Below are positions 1 through 9,645 of a DNA stretch of 64,000 nucleotides, one piece after another. Positions within the stretch are counted from its first letter, which is position 1; each line of letters opens with the position of its first letter. The translations under genes and the position numbers were made by a program. The stretch comes from an uncultured bacterium (GTDB lineage Bacteria > Desulfobacterota > Deferrimicrobia > Deferrimicrobiales > Deferrimicrobiaceae): assembly GCA_963764045.1 (NCBI GenBank), contig CAVXQW010000007.1, positions 173,630 to 237,629 of the forward strand, given 5' to 3'. The notes under the pieces were generated by a model. The model searched no databases. It saw nothing but the letters and a program-made list of their open reading frames with translations, and was not told the origin of the DNA.

Positions 1-575
1 GCTCCACGAGCAGTATGGTCACGCCGTCCTCCTGAAGTTTTCGTATGATCTCCATGATTTCGTGAACGATTTTCGGCGCGAGCCCTTCACTCGGCTCGTC
101 GATGAGCATCAGTTTCGGGTTGGCCATCAGGCCCCGGGCGATGGTGAGCATCTGCTGCTCGCCGCCGGAGAGCTTGCCGCCATCCTGCTTGAGCCGTTCC
201 TTGAGGCGGGGAAAATATCCGAAGATCGACTCCAGCAACTCATCCCAGTTCCTGATCTTCCCCTGGACCAGCGATCCCAGTTTCAGGTTCTCGTACACGG
301 TGAGGTTCGGGATGACCCGCCGGTCTTCGGGGATGAGGGAGATGCCCTTGCGCGCGATCCGATGCGGCGGCAGCCCGGAGATCTCTTCGCCGCGGAAAAC
401 GACGTTCCCGCTTCGGGGAGCCTGGACGCCCATGATGGTCTTCATGGTGGTGCTCTTGCCGACGCCGTTCCGTCCCAGGAGAACGACGATCTCCCCTTCC
501 TTCACCTCGAGGGAGAGGTCGTGCAGGACGTGGCTGTAGCCGTAGAACGTGTTGACGTTGCGCAAGCCTAAGCAT
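1..575 (-). CDS. livF: Branched-chain-type ABC transporter ATP-binding subunit (LivF-like); runs off the left edge; apparent frameshift in the first codons
   Basis: Minus-strand reading gives NVNTFYGYSHVL...GRNGVGKSTT (Walker A), LSGGEQQML (signature) and LIDEPSEGLAP (Walker B). The + strand ORFs here are antisense shadows. Confidence 0.9.
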
Positions 576-1317
576 GTTTCTCTTCCCCCAGGTAAACCCT
601 TTGCACCTCCTGGTTGTCGCTCACCTGCCGCGGCGTCCCTTCCGCGAGGACCTTCCCTTCGTTGAGCACGAGGATCTCGTCCGATATTCCCATGACAACG
701 CTCATGTCATGCTCGACCAGGACGATCGAAAGCTTCAGGTCCCGGTTCAATCTCTGGATCAATTCGGCGCACTGACGGGTTTCCGCGACGCTCATTCCCG
801 CGGTGGGTTCGTCGAGGAGCAGCACCTGCGGTTCCGTGGCCAGCGCGATGCCGATCTCCAGGTACCGGCGCTCTCCGTGGGACAGGGTGGATGCCAGCCA
901 GCTTCTTTTCTCCAGCAGCTCCACCTGTTCCAGGATGCCGAGGGCCTTTTCGTTCAGCGCGGAGAGGGAGTGGGTCGTCCGCCAGAAGTTGAAGGCGGTC
1001 AGCCGGGACTGGGCGGCGATGCGCACGTTTTCAAAAACGGTCAGCCCCGGGAAAATGTGGGTCACCTGGTACGTCTTGGTGATGCCGAGACGCGAGGTCT
1101 GGTGGAGCGACAGGTCGGTGATGTCCCGGTCCCGGAAGAACACCTTGCCGCCCGTCGCCTGGTGGACCCCTGCGATCAGGTTGAACAGCGTCGTTTTCCC
1201 GGCGCCGTTCGGGCCGATGATCGACTTCAGCTGCCCCGGTTTCAGCGTGAAATTCACCTGGTCGACGGCGCGGAGCCCGTCGAAATGCTTGGAAATTTTC
1301 TCCGTCCGCAGCGTCAT
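568..1317 (-). CDS. livG: Branched-chain-type ABC transporter ATP-binding subunit (LivG-like)
   Basis: GPNGAGKTT, LSHGE, LLLDEPTAG, VEHDM motifs. Confidence 0.93.
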   Translation of the reverse strand: MTLRTEKISKHFDGLRAVDQVNFTLKPGQLKSIIGPNGAGKTTLFNLIAGVHQATGGKVFFRDRDITDLSLHQTSRLGITKTYQVTHIFPGLTVFENVRIAAQSRLTAFNFWRTTHSLSALNEKALGILEQVELLEKRSWLASTLSHGERRYLEIGIALATEPQVLLLDEPTAGMSVAETRQCAELIQRLNRDLKLSIVLVEHDMSVVMGISDEILVLNEGKVLAEGTPRQVSDNQEVQRVYLGEEKHA

Positions 1318-1321
1318 GGCG

Positions 1322-2339
1322 TCACCCGTCCGAGGGGAGGGTGGCCGCCTTGTTCTGCAGCTTGGCCATCCTCCGGTCGCTCAATACCGCCTGGAGAGTG
1401 CCGATGATGCCGCCCGGGAACACCAGGATGATGACCACGAAGATCGTGCCGACGAAGAGCTCCCACCGGGGGGTGAAGAGGCTGATCGTATTCTGAAGGA
1501 AAAGGAACACGGCCGCTCCGACCAGGGGTCCCAGGAACGTCCCCTTCCCCCCGAGGATGGTCATCATGACGATGGTTCCCGAGGTGAACCAGAACAGCGT
1601 GGCCAGCGGCACGTAGTTCAGGTACAGGGTATTGAGGCCTCCGGCGAGGCCACCGTAAAAGGCGGACAGGACCAGCGTGAAGAACTTGACCAGTGCGGTG
1701 TTGTAGCCGCACGCCTTCGCCCGCTCCTCGTTCTCCCGGAACGCCCTCAGCAGCTTCCCGAACGGGGACTGGAGGATTCTCCAGGTGAGATAGAGGATGG
1801 CCACCGTGATCGCAAGGATGAAATAGTAGATGGGCCTCGGTTTGTGGAGGGCGATGAAGAACAGGTCGACCTGCGGGATATGGGTCAGGCCGTCCTCTCC
1901 CCGGGTGAGGTGTTTCAGCGGAGAGAGGGCGAGGAAATAGAGCATCTGCCCGAAGGCCAGGGAGATCATGGCGAAATAGACGCCGCGGCTGCGGATCGCC
2001 AGTACGCCGATCAGGCATGCCAGGAGCATCGACGCGACGATCCCGACGGCCAATCCGCCCAGGACGCCGACGTGCCAGGTACCGCAGGGCAAGCCCCATG
2101 CCGTACGCGCCCATGCCGAAATACGCGGAATGGCCGAAGGAGAGGACTCCCGTGTACCCCAGGAGGAGGTTGAAGCCGATGCCGAAAATGGCCCAGATCA
2201 GGATCTCGGTCGCCAGCGGCGTGGAGATGACGAAGGGGAGGGCGGCGAGGACCAGGGCGGTACCCCAGACGATGGTGGAACGCGGCTTCGGCGCCACATC
2301 CCGCAGCAGCGATTCCATGTTCTTGATCGAATCCTTCAT
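1322..2339 (-). CDS. livM: Branched-chain-type ABC permease (LivM-like), one apparent frameshift near 2090
   Basis: N-terminal part (LLLGYTGVLSFGHSAYFG) in ORF 1314..2339; C-terminal part (RGVYFAMISLAFGQM, SPFG..RAFRENEERA) in ORF 1322..2092. Confidence 0.9.
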
Positions 2340-2352
2340 CCCTGGCCCTTCG

Positions 2353-3237
2353 CTACTCCCGTCCGCTTTCCCCGAACAGCCCCCGGGGTCTGATCAGCAG
2401 GATGACCGCCATGCAGAAGTACATGGAGACGCTGGAATATTCGCCGGCGATCAGCGAGGTGAAGGCGACGATGACCCCGATCAGCAACCCCCCGACGATG
2501 GCGCCGCCCAGGCTCCCCAGGCCGCCGACCACCGTCACCACGAAGGCCACCATGGTCATATCGACCCCCATGTCGGGAGTGGCGGACATCATGGGGACGG
2601 AGATCGCGCCCGCCAGTCCGGCAAGCCCGGTGCCGATGGCGAAACCGATCGTCCAGATGCGGGAGGTGTTCGTGCCGAGGATCTGCACCATCTGGTTGTC
2701 CCGCGTCGCCGCCCGGATGATCATCCCCAGGTCGCTCTTCTTCAGGAACAGCCACAGGGAGATGAGGATGGCGAGGGTGAAGAAGATGATGAACAGGCGG
2801 TAGTTGGAGAAGATCATGTTTCCCGCGATCGTCGCCCCGGAGAGCATCGCCGGATAGGAAACCGGCTTCCCGGTGAGTCCGAAAACGATCTTTATCAGGT
2901 CGGGAACGGCCACGGAAAGACCGAACGTCAGGAGCAGCGGCAGGAGCGGATCCTTGCCGTACAAAGGCTTCAGGAGGAACAACTCGACGACCGTCCCGAT
3001 GATCGCGACGATGACCACGGCGCTCAGGATGCCGACCGCGAAGCTGCCGGATTGGCCCACGGCGACGAAGACCGCGTATGCCCCGAGCATGGCGAATGTC
3101 CCGTGGGCGAAATTGACCACGTCGAGCAGGCCGTAGATGATGGACAGCCCGCTGGCCAGGAGCACGAAGATCGAGCCGAGCGCCAGCCCGAAGAAGAGCT
3201 GCATGAGGATGGCGGTCCATGAGATGTCGCTGAACAT
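2353..3237 (-). CDS. livH: Branched-chain-type ABC permease (LivH-like)
   Basis: LASGLSIIYGLLDVVNFAHG, GMIIRAATRD, VVTVVGGLGS motifs; start taken at MFSDISW. Confidence 0.92.
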   Translation of the reverse strand: MFSDISWTAILMQLFFGLALGSIFVLLASGLSIIYGLLDVVNFAHGTFAMLGAYAVFVAVGQSGSFAVGILSAVVIVAIIGTVVELFLLKPLYGKDPLLPLLLTFGLSVAVPDLIKIVFGLTGKPVSYPAMLSGATIAGNMIFSNYRLFIIFFTLAILISLWLFLKKSDLGMIIRAATRDNQMVQILGTNTSRIWTIGFAIGTGLAGLAGAISVPMMSATPDMGVDMTMVAFVVTVVGGLGSLGGAIVGGLLIGVIVAFTSLIAGEYSSVSMYFCMAVILLIRPRGLFGESGRE

Positions 3238-3253
3238 ACACACCCTCTTGCCT

Positions 3254-3283
3254 CTCCGGAGGGGTGTCCCCACCCCTCCGGAG
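3254..3283. promoter_or_regulatory. Perfect 13-bp GC-rich hairpin between the SBP gene and livH
   Basis: CTCCGGAGGGGTG-tccc-CACCCCTCCGGAG; no U-tract. Confidence 0.6.
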
Positions 3284-3346
3284 GAAGGCCGCGAACTGCC
3301 AGGAACGGCCGGGCCTGGCGAAGGAACGTTTTCCCGAGGTTGTCCT

Positions 3347-4618
3347 CTAGGGAAGCTTTATATTGGCGAAGGGAAGTCTTTTCGCGTTCTGCTCGCAGGA
3401 CATGATGATCGAATCCCCGGGGATCTCGGCCACGATATCCGCCAGGTCCCAGCCCTTCGCCTTCGCGCCTTTTCCCTTCAGCAGAAGGTAGCTCTGCACC
3501 CTCTGGTGGTCGCAGGCGCGCACGGTCTCGGGGCCCTTGGTCAAGGTGTACTTGATCCCCTCCATGGCCGCGACGATCTTTTCCTTGTCGGTCACCGTTT
3601 TCGCCTTCTCCATCGCCATGAAGAGGACATTCGTCGCCACGTACCCGGATTCCCCGTCCTGCTCGATGGGCTGGCCGAACTTCTTCATGTAGGCGTCCAT
3701 GAACTTCCTGGCGCCGGGATATTTGTCCCGCAGTCCCCAGTAGAAGGTCATCCCCCCCATGATGTTCTCGTCGTACGCGGCCCCGGCCTCCTTCATCGTG
3801 GTCATGGCCGTCTTCGTGCAGACGATCTTCATCTTCTTGTTCAGGCCGAGTTCGCTCAACTGCTTGATCGCCGCCGTCTGGTCCGCCCCCAGGTTGTTCA
3901 TCACGAGGACTTCCGGGTTCGCCGCCATGATCTTGGTGAAGTAGGTCGAGAAGTCCGTGGCGCCGAGCGGCGCGTAGACGTTGCCGAGGAATTGGGCCCC
4001 CATCTGCTGGCTTTGCCAGATCCACCCTTCGAGAAGGCTCTGCCCCCAACGGTAATCCGCCGTGATCGAGAACCATTTTTTCCCGAGCTTCTCGAACGCG
4101 TATTTCGACGTCGCCAGCGCCGCGGAGTACGGGATCACCTGGAAGGCGAAACCGTACTTGCCCTGGTCCGTACCCAGCACCATGTCGCTCATGCAATACG
4201 CCATGTAGGGGATCTTGTTCTTGTTGGCGAATTCGTTGATCGCGAGGGAGATGGAGCCGGAAAGGGTTCCCCCGATGAAGTCGCACTTTTCCTCTTCCAC
4301 GAGCTCCTTGGCCCGGCGCAGCGCCACGGCGCCGTTCAGCTGGTCGTCCCGATGGACCCATTCGATCTTGTTCCCCAGGACGCCGCCCTTGGCGTTCCAT
4401 TCTTCCACCGCGAGTTGCGTGGCGTTCCGCTGGTCGGCGCCGAGCGCCGAATAAGGGCCGGTCAAGGGGTGCATCGTCCCGTACTTGATCACACCTTCCT
4501 TGGCGCCGGCCATTCTTGCGATGAATGGAATGCCGGCCCCCGCGAGCGCCGCGCCGCCAAGCGCCGCTCCTTTCAATACGTCCCTCCTGGATACTTTCGC
4601 GCCCATTTTCCTGTTCAC
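3347..4618 (-). CDS. Liv-type ABC periplasmic substrate-binding protein with twin-arginine signal
   Basis: SRRDVLK plus hydrophobic stretch; type I periplasmic binding fold pattern (PLTGPYSALG, DFIGGTLSG, DFSTYFTKI). Confidence 0.9.
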   Translation of the reverse strand: MNRKMGAKVSRRDVLKGAALGGAALAGAGIPFIARMAGAKEGVIKYGTMHPLTGPYSALGADQRNATQLAVEEWNAKGGVLGNKIEWVHRDDQLNGAVALRRAKELVEEEKCDFIGGTLSGSISLAINEFANKNKIPYMAYCMSDMVLGTDQGKYGFAFQVIPYSAALATSKYAFEKLGKKWFSITADYRWGQSLLEGWIWQSQQMGAQFLGNVYAPLGATDFSTYFTKIMAANPEVLVMNNLGADQTAAIKQLSELGLNKKMKIVCTKTAMTTMKEAGAAYDENIMGGMTFYWGLRDKYPGARKFMDAYMKKFGQPIEQDGESGYVATNVLFMAMEKAKTVTDKEKIVAAMEGIKYTLTKGPETVRACDHQRVQSYLLLKGKGAKAKGWDLADIVAEIPGDSIIMSCEQNAKRLPFANIKLP

Positions 4619-4706
4619 CTGGTGTTCCCCCTTTTCCTGGCGTTTTCCGCGGAATCTTCCCTATCCGACACCTGCTTGTCGCGAACGACCTTGCGGCCAG
4701 CCGGTT

Positions 4707-5486
4707 TCACTGAATCGTCCACCCCCCGTCGATGTACAGCACGTGCCCGGTCACCATGTCGGCGGCGGAAGAAGCCAGGTAGACCACGGCCCCCGTCACG
4801 TCCGACGGTTTCGCTATCCTGCCCAAGGGGATATTGGCGAGCACGTACCGGTGGAACTCCTCATTTTGGAACATCTGTTTGGTCCATTGCGTATCCAGGA
4901 ACGTCGGGGCGACGGCGTTGACGTTGATCTGGTGCGGCGCCCATTCCAGGGCGAGCAGCCTTGTCAGTTGGTTGACGCCCCCCTTGCTCGAGCAGTACGC
5001 GGCCCGCTGCGGAATCGCGACGGAACCGGCCTGTGAAGAGACGTTGATGATCTTGCCGTGGTTTTGCCGGATCATGATCTTGCCCACGGCCTGGGAGCAG
5101 AAAAAGACGGCTTTCAGGTTGACGGCAAGCACCGTGTCCCACGCCTGTTCCGTCACATCGACCGCCATTTGCGTGATATTGACGCCCGCGTTGTTCACCA
5201 GGATGTCGATGCGCCCGAACTCATCGACCGCCTTGGCGACCATGGCCTGGATCGCCGGAACGCTGGCGAGATCCGCCGCGACGGGGAACGACCGTCGACC
5301 CAGCGCCTTGACCGCTTCCCGGGTCTGTTCCGTTTCGGCAAGGGTCCGGTCGGCCACGATGACGTCCGAACCGTACGCGGCCAGCGCCAGCGCGATCTGG
5401 GCGCCCAACCCCCTGCCGGCACCCGTGACCAGGGCGACTTTTCCGGACAGGTCGAAACCGGGCGCGCCTGTTTTCTCGGGATCCAT
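4707..5486 (-). CDS. Short-chain dehydrogenase/reductase (KduD/gluconate-5-dehydrogenase-like)
   Basis: TGAGRGLG, NNAG, YCSSKGG (YxxxK), NAVAPT, DGGW. Confidence 0.9.
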   Translation of the reverse strand: MDPEKTGAPGFDLSGKVALVTGAGRGLGAQIALALAAYGSDVIVADRTLAETEQTREAVKALGRRSFPVAADLASVPAIQAMVAKAVDEFGRIDILVNNAGVNITQMAVDVTEQAWDTVLAVNLKAVFFCSQAVGKIMIRQNHGKIINVSSQAGSVAIPQRAAYCSSKGGVNQLTRLLALEWAPHQINVNAVAPTFLDTQWTKQMFQNEEFHRYVLANIPLGRIAKPSDVTGAVVYLASSAADMVTGHVLYIDGGWTIQ

Positions 5487-5499
5487 GCGGTGCCCCTCC

Positions 5500-6774
5500 C
5501 TATTTCTTGCCGTATTTTTCGATCCTCGCCCGGCAGGAGATGCCGTGGGCGAGCATGTTTTCATAATTGCAGGCTCTTTCGCAGACCTCGGCGATCTTGT
5601 ACGAGGCCTCTTTGGTGGCGTATTGATAGGTGACGGTCTTCACGAACTTCCCAACCGAAAGTCCACCCGTGTAGCGCGCCGCGCCCATCGTTGGCAATAC
5701 GTGGTTGGTGCCGATCGTCTTGTCGCCATACGCCACCGTGGTCTCCTCTCCCAGGAAGGCCGACCCGTAGTTCTTCAGATGGTCCAGATAGTACCGCCAG
5801 TCCCGGGTCTGGATTTCCACATGTTCGGGAGCCCATGCGTCGCTGACCTTCACCGCTTCCTCGGCGGAGTCGACCACCACGACCTCGCCGTTGTCTCTCC
5901 AGGCGACGGAAGCCACGTCCCGTGTCGGGAGATCGACCAGTTGCCGGTCCACCTCTTTCATGGCCGCCTTCGCGGTTTCCCTGGAAAGAGAGACAAGGCA
6001 TTGGCGCGCGTTGGGGTCGTGCTCCGCCTGCCCCAGGATATCCACCGCCAGCATGGCCGGATCGGCCGAGTCATCCGCGATGACCAGGATTTCGGTCGGG
6101 CCGGCCAGAAGGTCGATACCTACGGTGCCGAAGAGTTGCCGTTTCGCCTCCGCCACGTACTTGTTCCCCGCGCCGACGATCATGTCCACCGGGGCAAGGC
6201 CTTCCATGCCGTACGCCAGGGCGGCCAGGGCATGCACCCCGCCCATGCAATAGATCTCGTCCGCACCGGCCGCGACCATCGAGTAAAGCGTTGCCGGCCA
6301 CAGCCCCTGCCCTTTCACGGGGGGGGAACAGGCGACCACCCTCGAGACCCCGGCGACCTTCGGGGTGATCACCGTCATGTGGGCCGAGCCGAGCATGGGA
6401 TAGCGCCCTCCGGGAATGTAGGACCCGCTGGACGCGATCGGGATGATCTTCTGGCCCAGGTGTACGCCGGGAAGCGTTTCCACCTCGAAGTCGACCAGGC
6501 GCTCCATCTGTTCCCGGGCGAAATTGCGGATCTGCTTCTGGCAGAAATCGATATCGTCGACCTCGGTCGGAGGGAGTTTCCCCTTCACCGCTCGCATCTC
6601 GTCTTCGGAAACCTTGAACCTGTCGGGGGCCCAGCCGTCGAACTTGCCGGAATAGTACCGGACGGCCTCCGCTCCCTCTTTCCGGACCTTGTCGAGGATT
6701 TCGCGCACCGTGTCCTGAACGGCACGGATGTCTTCGATCTGCTTCACTGTCGGCTTTTTCAGATATTCCGCCAT
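5500..6774 (-). CDS. Histidinol-dehydrogenase-family paralogue (HpsN/sulfopropanediol dehydrogenase-like clade)
   Basis: YIPGGRYP, GQAEHD, APEH, GDKTIGTNHVLPT (GDK rather than the GDY of canonical HisD); not in a his operon. Confidence 0.85.
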   Translation of the reverse strand: MAEYLKKPTVKQIEDIRAVQDTVREILDKVRKEGAEAVRYYSGKFDGWAPDRFKVSEDEMRAVKGKLPPTEVDDIDFCQKQIRNFAREQMERLVDFEVETLPGVHLGQKIIPIASSGSYIPGGRYPMLGSAHMTVITPKVAGVSRVVACSPPVKGQGLWPATLYSMVAAGADEIYCMGGVHALAALAYGMEGLAPVDMIVGAGNKYVAEAKRQLFGTVGIDLLAGPTEILVIADDSADPAMLAVDILGQAEHDPNARQCLVSLSRETAKAAMKEVDRQLVDLPTRDVASVAWRDNGEVVVVDSAEEAVKVSDAWAPEHVEIQTRDWRYYLDHLKNYGSAFLGEETTVAYGDKTIGTNHVLPTMGAARYTGGLSVGKFVKTVTYQYATKEASYKIAEVCERACNYENMLAHGISCRARIEKYGKK

Positions 6775-6910
6775 GAACCGGCCTCCGATGCGGTCAGGAT
6801 GATCCTGCCGAAAATGGTGTTTTGTTCGCGAAGTGTAAACCGATATCCGCTACGCGATCAAGAATAATCCCCCGGCAGTCCGGCAACACCGATCCCGCCG
6901 CGCAGGAACT

Positions 6911-7558
6911 TCACCGGCCGCGCCGGTGGCTGTTGTTGATGATTCCCGCCACGAACGCCACTTGCGCCGTGTTTTCCACCAGATCGGCCAGATAATAAGC
7001 GGACTTGATGTCCGGACCCAGCGCCAGGACCCCGTGCTCCGCCATCAGCAGGACCTTGACCCCGGGATGACGCACGATCCCCCCCTTGACGAAATCGCAC
7101 AGTTCCCTCGACCCCGACGGGGCGCATTCGATCACCGGCACCTCCTTCAGGATCGCGCGGGCCGTGACGGTCGCCAGAGGGAGCGGTTTGCCCAGGTGCG
7201 AATAGGCCGTCGCGTACGCCGAGTGCACGTGGGCGATCGCCCCTACGTCCGGGCGAAGTTCGTAGACCGCCAGGTGGAAACCGGTTTCCTTCGACGGGAC
7301 CAGGTTCAAGGGATTTTCGAGGATGGTGCCGTCCAGCCGCACCAGGAGGTTGGTCTCGGGCTCCACGTCGGCCAGAGCCACTCCGGACGGCGTGATGAGG
7401 ACTTTGTCCGATCCGGGGATCCTGACGCTCATGTTCCCGCCGGTTCCGCCGACAAGGTTCCGGAGGAATGCGCGCTTCGAGAAATCGGACAGTTCATGCC
7501 GCAAACGGGATACGGTTTCCTCTTCCCGGATCATCATCTCGTCGATCTCCACGCTCAC
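6911..7558 (-). CDS. Class II aldolase/adducin family protein (FucA/AraD/MtnB-like)
   Basis: [28 protein letters not shown] (Zn-binding HxH), HGVL. Confidence 0.88.
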
Positions 7559-7649
7559 CTCTCTTTATCCATCTGGTACGATGATACCTTCTTCGCGATT
7601 TTATGGGAACGCGGGGAACCCGAATCGGAAAAAGAAGGGAGGGAAGAGG

Positions 7650-8135
7650 ATGCCGTCGTTCGATGTCGTATCGGTCGTGAACATGCAGGAGGTCGACAAC
7701 GCGGTCAACCAGGCGATCAAGGAGATCGGCCAGCGGTACGACTTCAAGGGGTCGAAGACGGAGATCACCCAGGACAAGGACGGCATCAAGGTTCTGACCG
7801 ACGACGACTTCCGGCTGAAGGCGGTCATCGACGTCCTCCAATCGAAGTTCGTGAAGCGCGGGGTCTCCCTCAAGGCCCTGCAGTACGGGAAGGTGGAGCC
7901 GGCATCCGGCGGTTGCGTCCGCCAGGTGATCACCATCCAGCAGGGGATCTCCACCGAGAAGGGGAAGGAGATCGTCGCCATCATCAAGCAGACGAAGCTG
8001 AAGGTCCAGTCCCAGATCCAGGACGAGCAGGTCCGCGTGACCGGGAAGAACATCGACGACCTCCAGACCGTCATCGGGCTGCTGAAGGGGAAGGACCTCG
8101 GCGTGGAGATGCAGTTCGTCAACCTCCGTCCGTAG
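7650..8135 (+). CDS. yajQ: YajQ family cyclic-di-GMP/nucleotide-binding protein
   Basis: [25 protein letters not shown]...[13 protein letters not shown]...QFVNLR. Confidence 0.95.
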
Positions 8136-8157: not shown

Positions 8158-8851
8158 ATGGCGGACGTCCCGTTTTACCGGGAATTGCGGGAAAAGACCG
8201 ACCCCTTGTGGAAGGCGATTTTCCATCACCCCTTCGTGAAAGGGATCGGAGACGGCACCCTGCCGCGGGACCGGTTCGAGTTCTATCTCAAGCAGGATTA
8301 CGTGTACCTGATCGATTTCAGCCGCATCTTCGCGCTGGCCTGCGCGAAATCCCGGACGCTGGCGGACATGGGAATCTTCGCCGCCTTGCTCCACGCCACG
8401 CTCAACACGGAAATGGAGCTCCACCGGAAAACGTGCGCCGCCTTCGGGATCGCGGAGGAGGAACTGGCGAAGACCATCAAGAGTCCGATCACCTCCGCCT
8501 ACACCGATCTGCTGGTGCGGACTGCCTATGAGGGCGGATTCTCCGACATATTGGCGGTGCTGCTGCCGTGCGCGTGCGGGTACGCGGAGATCGGGAAGAG
8601 GCTCGGATCGGAGGGGCTTCCGGAGGACCGGTTTTACCGGGATTGGATCGACACCTACTCCTCTCCGGAATTCCAGGGATTCGCCGATTGGCTCATCGAC
8701 AGGATGAATGAATGCGCCGCCGACGCTTCACGAGCACCGCAAGGAGCACTGGCATCGCCTGTACGAATCGAGTGCCCGCTACGAATACCTCTTCTTCGAC
8801 ATGAGCTGGAAAAAAGAAGGCGTGGCGGCGATCGGCGGGGAGGCGGAATGA
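8158..8851 (+). CDS. tenA: Thiaminase II / TenA, apparent frameshift near 8730
   Basis: HPFV, FYLKQDYVYL, LLPCACGY (catalytic Cys), WIDTYSS. The shifted frame continues SARYEYLFFDMSW and ends at an ATGA overlap with thiD. Confidence 0.85.
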
Positions 8852-9645
8852 AAAGGGCGCTTACCATCGCCGGCTCCGACAGCGGGGGAGGCGCCGGCAT
8901 CCAGGCGGACCTGAAGACGTTCATGGCCTTCGGCGTTCACGGGATGTCCGCCATCACCGCCCTCACGGCCCAGAACACGGTGGGCGTGCAGGGGATCTTC
9001 GAGGTTTCCCCCGAGTTCGTCCGGAAGCAGATCGAAAGCGTCATGACCGACATCGGGGCCGATGCCGCAAAGACCGGAATGCTGTCCAACGCAAAGATCG
9101 TCCGGACGGTGGCGGAAGCGATCCGGACCTTCCGCATCCCCAACCTGGTCGTCGACCCGGTGATGGTCGCCAAGAGCGGCGACCCCCTCCTGGCGGGGGA
9201 TGCGCGGCAGGCGATCCGCGACGAACTGCTGCCGCTGGCCACGGTCATCACGCCCAACGTTTTCGAAGCCGAAGCGCTCCTGGAGCGCAGGATCGAAGAT
9301 CTCGACGCCATGCGGGACGCGGCGCGGGAACTGAAAAAGTTCGGGTGCAGGTGGGTGGTCATCAAGGGAGCGAGCCTGGGGATCGACTCCCGGGCGGTGG
9401 ACGTGGTCTGCGACGGGGGGGAACCGATCCTCCTGACCTCCCCTCGAATCGAATCCAGGAATACCCAGGGCACCGGCTGCACCTTCGCCTCCGCCATCGC
9501 GGCCGGGCTCGCGAAGGGCGTCGCCCCGCTGGAAGCCATCAAGCGCGCCAAGGAATACATCACCGAGGCGATCCGGAGCGGGCCTCCGATCGGAAGCGGC
9601 CACGGTCCCGCGAACCACCTGACGGGCGTGCACAGCAAATGGTGA
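8848..9645 (+). CDS. thiD: Hydroxymethylpyrimidine/phosphomethylpyrimidine kinase
   Basis: LTIAGSDSGGGAGIQADLKT, KTGML, DPVMVAKSG, TPN, GTGCTFASA. Confidence 0.95.
   Translation: MKRALTIAGSDSGGGAGIQADLKTFMAFGVHGMSAITALTAQNTVGVQGIFEVSPEFVRKQIESVMTDIGADAAKTGMLSNAKIVRTVAEAIRTFRIPNLVVDPVMVAKSGDPLLAGDARQAIRDELLPLATVITPNVFEAEALLERRIEDLDAMRDAARELKKFGCRWVVIKGASLGIDSRAVDVVCDGGEPILLTSPRIESRNTQGTGCTFASAIAAGLAKGVAPLEAIKRAKEYITEAIRSGPPIGSGHGPANHLTGVHSKW

Follow-up and report, generated by a model that had tools for sequence, protein, structure and literature searches.

The window, the whole 64,000-nucleotide stretch of DNA analyzed here, holds eight of the 11 genes of a predicted uptake-and-breakdown operon; the other three lie just outside it. 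The operon is very probably catabolic, and the HisD paralogue that it encodes very probably is neither a histidinol dehydrogenase nor a true HpsN. Judged from sequence comparison, the best explanation for the operon as a whole, with a probability of roughly 0.55, is that it would import and degrade one small polar compound by a kinase/aldolase route resembling the Otn pathway. The features are as follows:

7581..7609, minus strand: candidate promoter-like site upstream of the aldolase gene, a match to the consensus (TTCCCA-17-TATCAT) and weak evidence, such matches being no more frequent in the region than in shuffled sequence
6911..7558, minus strand: class II aldolase/epimerase/decarboxylase-family protein (PF00596, 143.7 bits)
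5500..6774, minus strand: HisD-family protein of 424 aa, an HpsN-sister putative four-electron dehydrogenase of the G-R-Y-P-M / Asp-Lys type (PF00815, 450 bits; TIGR00069, 445.7 bits)
4707..5486, minus strand: partner short-chain dehydrogenase (SDR) of 259 aa (adh_short_C2, 217 bits)
3347..4618, minus strand: Tat-exported Peripla_BP_6 substrate-binding protein (SBP) of the Liv/urea/aromatic-acid type (PF13458, 269.5 bits)
2353..3273, minus strand: LivH-type permease (PF02653, 116.7 bits)
1322..2339, minus strand: LivM-type permease in two frames, with a one-base frameshift near 2079-2085
568..1317, minus strand: LivG-type ATPase (ABC_tran and BCA_ABC_TP_C domains)
2..565, minus strand: LivF-type ATPase (ABC_tran), cut by the window edge
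about 172718-173475 of contig C7 (genome G000), outside the window and directly downstream of livF: MBL-fold hydrolase
171380-172705 of the same contig, outside the window, downstream: UPF0261 protein
about 170704-171402 of the same contig, outside the window, downstream: cyclase-family hydrolase

The co-oriented run of aldolase, HisD-like, SDR, Tat-SBP and livHMGF genes described in the earlier note was thus found at or near the positions given there, all eight on the minus strand. The corrections are the frameshift in livM, the truncation of livF by the window edge (the gene ends ~142 bases before window position 1, its 3' end being read in locus L083) and the three further genes with which the run continues in the same direction.

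The HisD-family protein carries the motifs QAEH (residues 249-252), APEH (315-318), GDK (350-352) and NHVLPT (357-362). Gln248, His251, Asp352, His411, Glu318, His319, Asp46 and Lys353 are kept, while His126 is replaced by Met and Ser226 by Thr, so that its sequence predicts a Zn/NAD-type HisD-fold dehydrogenase with all catalytic and metal residues intact. The earlier description of a non-biosynthetic, HpsN-like paralogue agrees with these motifs, with GDK in place of GDY and with a score of 407 bits to CpHpsN (8v35) compared to 255 bits to E. coli HisD (1k75). In the phylogenetic tree it falls inside the Asp-Lys superclade (100% SH-aLRT), which contains HpsN, in a clade of its own (97% support) that is sister to the HpsN clade, and the genome's own HisD groups with canonical HisD proteins. 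The NCBI annotation would make the protein a redundant histidinol dehydrogenase that lies beside a transporter by chance; its TIGR00069 score exceeds the cut-off of 243.8 and NCBI gives relatives that name. This is nevertheless extremely improbable. The second HisD-family gene of the genome scores better (493 bits) and sits on another contig in a hisD-hisB-hisH locus, and no his genes are near the paralogue; the paralogue is neither the only copy nor a member of the canonical branch, its motifs are GDK and G-R-Y-P-M rather than GDY and G-x-A-x-Y/L, 17 species of the same genus possess the canonical copy only, and its neighborhood is conserved and catabolic.

JGI/KEGG-style annotation points instead to a true HpsN, a DHPS (or cysteinolate) 3-dehydrogenase of a sulfonate pathway, and many members are named 'sulfopropanediol 3-dehydrogenase' by JGI. 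In accordance with this the protein is 48% identical to CpHpsN and keeps Lys353, which hydrogen-bonds the sulfonate in that enzyme, an SDR adjoins it as HpsO adjoins HpsN, and one relative adjoins sulfatases and an anaerobic sulfatase maturase. However, HpsN is defined by the motif G-R-Y-A/S-H, in which His126 binds the sulfonate (PMC11382572), and although the anion-facing Lys353 is common to both proteins this histidine is Met in the paralogue and in all its close homologues; PGGRYPM is present in 120/120 of the closest ones, and position 126 is Met or Leu across the clade loci with a readable motif. The lack of the sulfonate-binding histidine means that the substrate is probably not a sulfonate. 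The clade is also distinct from that of the His-bearing HpsN proteins, HpsO is a more distant relative of the SDR than KduD and GolD are, and the cluster has no HpsP-type MDR. Sulfolyase genes were found in none of the clusters, SuyAB, CuyA and Xsc genes in no type-A cluster, and neither dsrA nor a glycyl-radical enzyme in the 75%-complete genome, whose sole SuyB/UxaA-family gene sits on another contig. We consider a true HpsN highly unlikely, and a sulfonated substrate, one of the options of the earlier note, unlikely.

The partner SDR has a reading frame open up to 5564, and a start at the methionine at 5486 agrees with its relatives. Its closest NCBIfam families (score against cut-off) are GolD/DthD (262/286), glucose 1-DH and KduD (246/339), and in the PDB it matches KduD (4z9y) with 211 bits and HpsO (8wwf) with 158 bits. 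These matches suggest an SDR of the polyol/sugar-acid type, which almost always lies beside the HisD-like gene: in about 56/67 assessable related loci (about 84%) the two are <=1.5 kb apart, in support of their pairing. The set of cyclase, HisD-like, SDR, SBP, LivHMGF, UPF0261, MBL and aldolase genes, in some cases with a LacI regulator, is found, with its order shuffled, in about 15 loci that belong to several phyla (this genome's own, L003, L004, L005, L013, L024, L025, L030, L036, L040, L064, L069, L085, L087 and L094), which indicates that the arrangement is more than chance and that the cluster is conserved. The LacI-family regulators of the relatives are of the PurR/RbsR type.

The idea that aldolase, HisD-like protein and SDR form a conserved triad did not hold. 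In most relatives the aldolase gene lies at the far end of the cluster, beside the UPF0261 kinase-family gene to which it is adjacent in type-A clusters. In six relatives it is followed by a gene for a tartronate-semialdehyde reductase near-equivalog (327/341 bits). The aldolase encoded first in this operon is only 35-44% identical to those of other type-A clusters and 66-73% identical to one from an independent operon with the order LacI-creatininase-UPF0261-AldII-ZnADH-AP_endonuc_2-TctCBA, where UPF0261 and aldolase genes overlap translationally; these identities point to a lineage-specific replacement descended from that second lineage. The genome assembly contains one UPF0261 gene and, according to tblastn with the queries used, no further close homologue of this aldolase. 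As homologues are 208 aa long, translation probably begins at the ATG at 7537 (208 aa). The best NCBIfam matches, the Ru5P-epimerase subfamily (123.7/251) and OtnC (89.8/250), are all under their cut-offs. In the alignment to E. coli FucA the three Zn histidines, Glu73 and the phosphate-site residues N29, T/S43-G44 and S71 are kept and S72 is replaced by K, so the Zn site is intact and the DHAP-phosphate site mostly intact.

The SBP has a Tat signal with the motif SRRDVLK (TIGR01409, 23 bits, cut-off 16.7). It shares 52-89% identity among type-A clusters but no more than 27-34% with SBPs found in other HisD-like contexts, and since the PDB structure that it matches best (4maa, 130 bits) is an uncharacterised SBP this gives no clue to the ligand. 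In livM the frame of 1322-2092 encodes the C-terminal part and that of 2339 the N-terminal part; combined they span all 338 residues of an intact relative, compared to which there is an extra C (TAC-C-TGG). This indel is either a sequencing error or the mark of a pseudogene, and if it is real this organism may lack a working importer. The livM of a related long-read MAG is broken too, at a different spot.

Of the genes outside the window, the UPF0261 protein matches the MarK structure 9mpy with 224 bits and has the native Lys at the ATP-site position; kinase activity, the phosphorylation of phenol, has been reported for this family (PMC12624787). The MBL hydrolase is AiiA-like with an intact HxHxDH motif, and the cyclase/isatin-hydrolase-family protein keeps its metal motif. 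The pathway of SDR oxidation, aldol cleavage and HisD-type oxidation proposed from the window was therefore incomplete, as these genes add phosphorylation and ring or ester opening. From family membership we infer that the two hydrolases would open the compound that is imported or its ring or ester form, that the HisD-like enzyme would take a terminal -CH(OH or NH2)-CH2OH group through two NAD+-dependent oxidations to give the 2-hydroxy (or 2-amino) acid, and that the SDR would oxidize a neighboring secondary alcohol to a ketone. UPF0261 would then phosphorylate the hydroxymethyl group adjoining the ketone, and the class II aldolase-family enzyme would cleave or decarboxylate the product to dihydroxyacetone phosphate. 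The logic is that of the Otn and Ltn3D pathways for acid sugars, with a dehydrogenase, a kinase and an Aldolase_II decarboxylase (PMC12540250, PMC12994016), except that UPF0261 takes the place of their DUF1537 kinase.

We give this kinase-then-aldolase back end about an even chance, and suggest only tentatively that the substrate may be a C4-C6 polyol, acid sugar or lactone. Several observations count against this reading: polyols and sugar acids are not usually taken up by Liv-type (Peripla_BP_6) importers, the conservation of Lys353 would favor a substrate with a negative charge, and a plain polyol has none, and aldolase and SDR fall below every curated NCBIfam cut-off (OtnC 90 bits vs 250). 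The demonstrated activity of UPF0261 is on phenol only, which speaks against a sugar-phosphorylating step. This type of substrate also does not explain well why HisD-like proteins of equal similarity (77-82% identity) are found in quite different contexts, with corrinoid O-demethylase genes, a 3,5-dioxohexanoate BKACE equivalog, 3-hydroxyacyl dehydrogenases or sulfatases.

An alternative, which we regard as unlikely, is a polyphenol or cyclic-diketone route, in which the cluster would degrade a compound with an aromatic or alicyclic ring, such as a phloroglucinol-type, methoxylated or lignin/tannin-derived acid. The SDR would here act like phloroglucinol reductase, the cyclase-family protein would open the ring by retro-Claisen cleavage like dihydrophloroglucinol cyclohydrolase, UPF0261 would phosphorylate a phenolic hydroxyl in the manner of MarK, the aldolase-family protein would be a (de)carboxylase, and the HisD-like enzyme would oxidize either a side chain that ends in a hydroxymethyl group or a diol formed by ring opening. 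The phloroglucinol pathway uses four families, SDR, 'cyclase', 3-hydroxyacyl-CoA-DH-like and BKACE (PMC10470551). A cyclase-family gene is present in 20 clade loci (immediately preceding the HisD-like gene in about 15), a 3HCDH-family gene in 13 and BKACE in 11, the BKACE-group representative scoring 452.7 (cut-off 430) as the NCBIfam 3,5-dioxohexanoate (triacetate) equivalog. In L090 the HisD-like/SDR pair lies within a complete corrinoid O-demethylase operon (URO-D-like MT, B12-binding protein, pterin-binding MT, RACo). No activity other than aromatic phosphorylation is known for UPF0261, the SBP has several PDB relatives with aromatic acids as ligands (weak matches, about 75 bits or less), and the hosts are anaerobes of peat, soil and sediment. 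On the other hand, this organism's own cluster is without BKACE, 3HCDH and demethylase, the only matches of the cyclase, weak ones, are to arylformamidase and isatin hydrolase, and phloroglucinol reductase is absent among the SDR's 58 best PDB matches. The aldolase retains a sugar-phosphate-type phosphate site, the LacI regulators and the SDR's nearest families indicate carbohydrate-like ligands, and HisD chemistry requires a 2-OH or 2-NH2 beside the alcohol, which benzylic alcohols do not have.

The HisD family acts on both 2-amino and 2-hydroxy alcohols, histidinol in the case of HisD and L-cysteinolate in that of Bilophila HpsN (PMC12814064), so the enzyme might turn a 2-amino alcohol into an amino acid. 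The Liv-type system would then import a zwitterion, such as a reduced amino acid or a carboxylate-bearing amino-polyol, and the hydrolases would strip an N-acyl or N-formyl group. Peripla_BP_6/LivHMGF importers are typical for amino acids, amides and urea, and formamidases and amide hydrolases are among the members of the cyclase family. Residue 126 is hydrophobic (Met or Leu), and in HisD this position is predominantly Leu (PMC11382572); the genome's own canonical HisD has Tyr there. This proposal is quite unlikely, as it leaves the kinase, the class II aldolase, the lactonase-like MBL and the tartronate-semialdehyde-reductase-like gene unexplained, the conserved genes of the cluster include no aminotransferase, deaminase or racemase, and amino-acid catabolism is not typically under LacI-type regulators.

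In the literature we found no description of a conserved catabolic importer operon with this HisD paralogue, in agreement with the earlier suggestion that the combination is undescribed. The database names 'histidinol dehydrogenase' and 'sulfopropanediol dehydrogenase' are probably both wrong for this protein. The operon is distributed patchily among anaerobic soil and sediment bacteria, and the lack of the paralogue in all 17 sister species of the genus (0/17) indicates that the cluster, two thirds of which lies in the window, is accessory; it was probably acquired horizontally.

All eight genes that the earlier note had read between positions 1 and 7558 were recovered on the minus strand, at or near where it had placed them. 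Its proposal that they form an undescribed catabolic operon centred on a paralogue akin to HpsN is supported in part. The operon is larger than proposed: three further genes lie beyond the window, one of them for a predicted kinase step. The operon comprises the following eleven genes.

6911-7558, minus strand, class II aldolase-family gene, first in transcription order
5500-6774, minus strand, HisD-family gene
4707-5486, minus strand, SDR
3347-4618, minus strand, Tat-signal Peripla_BP_6 binding protein (SBP)
2353-3273, minus strand, livH
1322-2339, minus strand, livM, split over two frames
568-1317, minus strand, livG
up to 565, minus strand, livF, which crosses the window edge and ends 142 bases outside the window
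outside the window after livF, minus strand, MBL-fold hydrolase, about 252 aa, HLHWDH motif intact
outside the window after the MBL gene, minus strand, UPF0261 protein, 441 aa
outside the window after the UPF0261 gene, minus strand, "cyclase"-family (PF04199) metal hydrolase, about 232 aa, HGPTHIDSVSH motif

Intergenic gaps in the window part of the operon are 4-136 nt, and the three genes beyond livF, read from the 12 kb before window position 1 (L083; L-numbers denote fetched loci), keep the same orientation, either overlapping slightly or separated by about 11-12 nt. As homologues of the aldolase are 208 aa long, its start is probably the ATG at 7537. The livM gene has one extra base near 2079-2085 (TAC-C-TGG), and its two frames jointly span all 338 residues of an intact relative. 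An assembly error seems more likely than a true pseudogene, since livM of the closest long-read relative (L084) is also broken, but at another position. The nearest matches of the MBL hydrolase, AiiA-type lactonases and 4-pyridoxolactonase, are far under the cut-off, and the cyclase-family hydrolase weakly matches isatin hydrolase and arylformamidase. By eye, no convincing operator-like palindrome was seen in the two 5' intergenic regions, and the 30-kb stretch of the genome's own contig that was examined holds no LacI gene.

The neighboring yajQ (7650-8135) and fused tenA-thiD (8158-9645, plus strand) are divergent and lie outside the operon unit. The fused gene adjoins yajQ and encodes TenA (thiaminase II) joined to ThiD (HMP/HMP-P kinase) in 495 aa; at L094, from a close relative, tenA and thiD are unfused and a thiL-like AIRS gene separates them. 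Directly after the cyclase gene, at L083 8565-8957 on the minus strand, comes a small gene encoding a DAHP-synthase ferredoxin-like domain; in L094 (7496-8001) the same small gene, together with a chorismate-mutase (CM_2) gene, stands directly upstream of the aldolase. About 1 kb past the operon end, L083 6788-8146 (plus strand) encodes a Wadjet JetD C-terminal/DUF2399 Toprim-like domain; this ORF may belong to a Wadjet-type defence system or be what is left of one.

The source MAG (2.73 Mb, 75% complete) contains two HisD-family genes. The product of the operon gene matches the family over its full length (PF00815, 450.3 bits, residues 13-417; TIGR00069, 445.7 bits), and the motifs QAEH, APEH, GDK and NHVLPT, which the earlier note had listed, occur at residues 249, 315, 350 and 357. 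In the alignment, numbered here and below after HpsN of Cupriavidus pinatubonensis (CpHpsN, PDB 8v35), it keeps the zinc ligands Gln248, His251, Asp352 and His411', the catalytic Glu318/His319 and the NAD-binding Asp46. With biosynthetic HisD (EC 1.1.1.23) it shares these full-length matches, the metal and catalytic residues and a hydrophobic residue at position 126, but it is only 38% identical to the genome's own HisD, is not part of a his operon, and has GDK and G-R-Y-P-M where HisD has GDY and G-x-A-x-[YL]. The second HisD-family gene, on contig C11, scores higher with the hisD model (493 vs 446 bits), and hisB (IGPD) and hisH (GATase) come after it. Canonical HisD was rejected for the operon protein on the grounds of its clade, its motifs and this hisB-hisH-linked copy elsewhere, and that it is simply a redundant histidine enzyme is, for all the shared residues, hardly credible. 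A genome search found no such paralogue in 17 other species of the same genus, which carry canonical hisD alone (about 40% identity to the query), nor in 12 more distant relatives. The paralogue, and by implication the whole cluster, is thus an accessory, patchily distributed trait of this lineage.

Among solved structures, the operon protein matches HpsN (8v35), the (R)-2,3-dihydroxypropanesulfonate (DHPS) 3-dehydrogenase (EC 1.1.1.308), with 407 bits and 48% identity and E. coli HisD with 255 bits. Fold, length, zinc ligands, Glu318/His319, Asp46 and Lys353 (the Lys of GDK) are the same as in HpsN, and an SDR is likewise encoded beside it. Its reaction is probably the same as well, a four-electron oxidation of an alcohol to an acid with NAD+. 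HpsN is defined by the motif G-R-Y-A/S-H, in which the last residue, His126, binds sulfonate, and Lys353, beside the zinc-binding Asp352, also hydrogen-bonds the sulfonate; HisD proteins carry G-S-A-P-L-like motifs in its place (PMC11382572). His126 of HpsN binds zinc in the free enzyme. In the operon protein the motif reads G-R-Y-P-M, with His126 replaced by Met, and Ser226 is replaced by Thr. Met occupies position 126 in all 120 closest database proteins, and the position is Met or Leu in the related clade loci with a readable motif. Unlike HpsN systems, the operon lacks both HpsP and a sulfolyase, and its transporter is of another type. Because of these differences, and because the protein belongs to a separate clade, its substrate is probably not a sulfonate, contrary to one of the options in the earlier note. 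True HpsN was rejected, with Met in place of His126 and a position outside the HpsN clade. A genuine sulfonate pathway of the HpsN kind, to which the shared residues and the adjacent SDR might point, is quite improbable: His126 is missing, no sulfolyase (SuyAB, CuyA, Xsc) occurs in any cluster of the conserved type A described below, and in the genome, which is only 75% complete, neither dsrA nor a glycyl-radical enzyme was found. The genome's one SuyB/UxaA-family gene is on another contig, the cluster contains no MDR (HpsP-type), and its SDR scores lower with HpsO (158 bits) than with KduD (211 bits). We conjecture that Lys353 kept together with His126 lost fits a third substrate group with a non-sulfonate anion, for example a carboxylate placed like the sulfonate of DHPS.

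These distinctions are reflected in a maximum-likelihood tree of 115 sequences, comprising 50%-identity cluster representatives from an all-library search, the loci, CpHpsN and the genome's own HisD. An "Asp-Lys" superclade (100% SH-aLRT) holds the His-bearing HpsN clade, a G-[RV]-Y-P-[ML] clade and a G-K-Y-P-L clade, the last with members from Cupriavidus and marine Gammaproteobacteria. CpHpsN clusters (97-99% support) with further sequences that carry the His. The operon protein falls outside that group, in the G-[RV]-Y-P-[ML] clade (97% support), which is joined to the HpsN clade at just 81%. The genome's own HisD branches apart from it, among canonical HisD proteins. Judged by its sequence, the operon protein therefore fits neither of its database names: it is not the histidine enzyme (NCBI) and lies outside the HpsN clade (JGI). 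The clade is widespread and mis-annotated. In the literature we found no characterised member of clade or cluster beyond the papers on HpsN, cysteinolate, MarK, phloroglucinol and threonate.

Scanning species-representative genomes yielded 80 loci, and the census of ORF clusters covers 70 clade loci (69 fetched and the genome's own). About 56 of the 67 assessable loci have a homologous SDR no more than 1.5 kb from the HisD-like gene, directly downstream in 40, upstream on the same strand in 10 and on the opposite strand in 6. Some 15 loci carry, in shuffled order, a set that we call type A: cyclase, HisD-like gene, SDR, SBP, LivHMGF, UPF0261, MBL and class II aldolase, with LacI in places. Six of these add a near tartronate-semialdehyde-reductase equivalog (327/341 bits). 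Type-A hosts are Desulfomonilaceae, Desulfobaccales, other Thermodesulfobacteriota and unclassified lineages. HisD-like proteins of equal similarity (77-82% identity) also occur in other settings. In a Desulfomonilaceae genome (L090 3108-17218) the HisD-like/SDR pair sits inside a same-strand cluster of 12 genes with an SBP-Liv importer, LacI, a 3HCDH-family dehydrogenase and a complete corrinoid O-demethylase system (URO-D-like methyltransferase, B12-binding protein, pterin-binding methyltransferase, RACo activase). At L092 (2587-12763) and L093 a clade member of 80% identity lies amid two sulfatases, MFS transporters and a ROK regulator, flanked directly by a Zn-ADH upstream and by a radical-SAM/SPASM anaerobic sulfatase maturase downstream. 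Members of the sister G-K-Y-P-L/Asp-Lys clade (54-55% identity) lie in aerobic contexts, exemplified by LysR - HpcH/HpaI aldolase - HisD-like - SDR - TctC in Cupriavidus respiraculi (L088 8031-13123) and by a LacI-linked operon of Halieaceae (L091, marine Gammaproteobacteria), rich in SnoaL/NTF2 domains and containing MetE-like, HpcH aldolase, Amidohydro_2 and cupin genes. In the contexts of this sister clade an aldolase again goes with the pair, but it is of another family.

A BKACE gene lies within 10 kb of the HisD-like gene in L006, L012, L015, L032, L044, L045, L049, L056, L058, L060 and L070, often together with a dehydrogenase of the 3HCDH family. A single representative, that of L060, was scanned; it exceeds the NCBIfam equivalog cut-off for 3,5-dioxohexanoate:acetyl-CoA transferase (452.7 vs 430 bits), the triacetate-cleaving enzyme of phloroglucinol degradation. 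These contexts, along with the O-demethylases, are what recommends the strongest alternative, a polyphenol or cyclic-diketone route, as the families of the phloroglucinol pathway (PGR, DPGC, TfD and TAL in Clostridium scatologenes) are exactly SDR, cyclase, 3HCDH and BKACE (PMC10470551), and an SDR adjoins a "cyclase"-family hydrolase there as well. However, 3HCDH and the equivalog-passing BKACE belong to other loci of the clade; the operon itself has no BKACE, 3HCDH or demethylase genes, its aldolase has a sugar-phosphate-type site, and the phloroglucinol pathway includes no HisD-family enzyme, kinase or aldolase. We regard this route as rather unlikely for the operon.

Solved structures gave no clue to the ligand of the SBP, as the top matches are uncharacterised proteins and urea or aromatic-acid binders match weakly. 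The SBPs of the O-demethylase, BKACE and sulfatase-type contexts are just 27-34% identical to that of the operon; different compounds are therefore imported alongside an unchanging HisD-like/SDR pair, which suggests that the substructure or intermediate on which the pair acts is common to them. An amino alcohol as the imported compound would suit a Liv-type importer, and Bilophila HpsN sets a precedent by also oxidising L-cysteinolate (PMC12814064), but such a route leaves the kinase and the aldolase unexplained and we consider it improbable.

These two proteins are informative in themselves. The UPF0261 protein contains both PF06792 and PF23189 and scores 452.6 bits with NF002674 (cut-off 335). 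It matches the structure of MarK (9mpy) with 224 bits, at about 40% identity by eye, and a Lys is aligned to MarK residue 16. MarK, the multiple aromatic kinase of Novosphingobium aromaticivorans, was in 2025 the first UPF0261 member shown to be an ATP-dependent kinase (PMC12624787). The two-domain architecture is common to both, and the ATP-site Lys that is native here was created in MarK by E16K. The partners of MarK are acetovanillone carboxylase and a phosphatase, whereas the gene coupled to UPF0261 here is of the class II aldolase family. This pairing points to a phosphorylation substrate other than those of MarK; neither the biotin carboxylase AcvCDE nor the phosphatase AcvF has a family member in the neighborhoods read.

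Aligned with E. coli FucA, the aldolase keeps H92, H94, H155, E73, N29, T43 (as Ser), G44 and S71, while S72 is changed to Lys; we take these to be the three zinc histidines, the catalytic Glu73 and the residues that bind the phosphate of DHAP. With a FucA-type zinc site and most of the phosphate site kept, the enzyme probably acts on a phosphorylated substrate of the hydroxyacetone type, with DHAP as product. A pathway of the vitamin-B6 type (SDR, MBL 4-pyridoxolactonase, 3HCDH-family FHMPC dehydrogenase, Aldolase_II decarboxylase), brought up by weak NCBIfam and PDB matches, was rejected on this enzyme, which scores 86 bits with FucA vs 34 with Mlr6791 and retains the phosphate site.

The history of the aldolase gene also ties it to UPF0261. 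Most type-A loci have their aldolase at the far end, beside UPF0261 and MBL. The other operon genes are 73-89% identical to their counterparts in L003, L004 and L069, the aldolase just about 35%. Its true relatives (66-73% identity) belong to a second conserved operon, in which the aldolase start overlaps the UPF0261 stop. This second operon (L095, L096, L097; about 4.6-13.9 kb each) reads LacI - creatininase-family hydrolase - UPF0261 - aldolase - Zn-ADH - AP_endonuc_2 - TctCBA, and looks like an apparently uncharacterised acid-sugar pathway of the Otn type with UPF0261 as kinase and AP_endonuc_2 as the OtnI-like TIM barrel. In the genome assembly UPF0261 occurs once, and the operon's aldolase has no second close homologue there; both genes lie in this cluster, and L094 has the same layout. 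From these identities, the aldolase of one UPF0261-coupled operon has evidently been replaced by that of another, the second operon being the source lineage. This speaks for UPF0261 and the aldolase acting jointly, and for an aldolase of this kind being required by the cluster.

The pathway that we propose would begin with uptake through the ABC system, after which the MBL and cyclase-family hydrolases would open a lactone, cyclic or esterified form. The HisD-like enzyme would then carry out a four-electron oxidation of a terminal -CH(OH/NH2)-CH2OH group, and the SDR, whose nearest families are the polyol 2-dehydrogenases GolD/DthD and KduD, would oxidise the neighboring secondary alcohol. UPF0261 would phosphorylate the product, and the aldolase-family enzyme would cleave a C-C bond or decarboxylate it to give DHAP. 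The order of dehydrogenase, kinase and Aldolase_II-family enzyme yielding DHAP is that of the Otn/Ltn pathways, in which the dehydrogenase is LtnD or Ltn3D and the substrates are small polyhydroxy acids. [quoted passage not shown] As far as sequence comparison goes, the likeness to the Otn pathway lies in its logic alone and the proteins are not equivalogs of Otn enzymes. The operon's aldolase has the Aldolase_II domain but reaches 89.8 bits with the OtnC model (cut-off 250; 86-90 bits for its relatives' aldolases), and the SDR is unrelated to PlLtn3D. The Otn/Ltn kinase is a DUF1537 protein (3-OtnK), and no cluster has a DUF1537 gene, its position being taken by UPF0261. The operon further differs by adding the HisD-type four-electron oxidation and two hydrolases, and by its Liv-type ABC importer. 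A route from ascorbate or dehydroascorbate over threonate to tartrate would give every enzyme a role and is one possible instance of an acid-sugar substrate.

The most far-reaching, still tentative reading, to which we give a probability of roughly 0.3, is that the G-R-Y-P-[ML]/Asp-Lys clade represents a third activity of the HisD fold, an NAD+-dependent four-electron oxidation of a vicinal diol that is neither a sulfonate nor an imidazole. This would most plausibly be the terminus of a small polyol or hydroxy acid, with a carboxylate in place of the sulfonate of DHPS, and the product would feed an unrecognised module of UPF0261 kinase and class II aldolase/decarboxylase, the anaerobes' counterpart of the DUF1537/OtnC pathways. 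Thousands of public entries named "histidinol dehydrogenase" (NCBI) or "sulfopropanediol 3-dehydrogenase" (JGI/KEGG) fail the defining test of either enzyme, so that a substrate for the clade would mend a widespread mis-annotation, and a third chemistry for the HisD fold could emerge. As the hosts live anaerobically in peat, soil and sediment, the substrate is likely to be a relevant carbon source in these habitats. The tie between UPF0261 and the class II aldolase is a concrete, testable hypothesis on a second function of a very widespread family; if true, UPF0261 would gain, besides its first, a carbohydrate-type kinase function, and a new DHAP-yielding catabolic route would be added.
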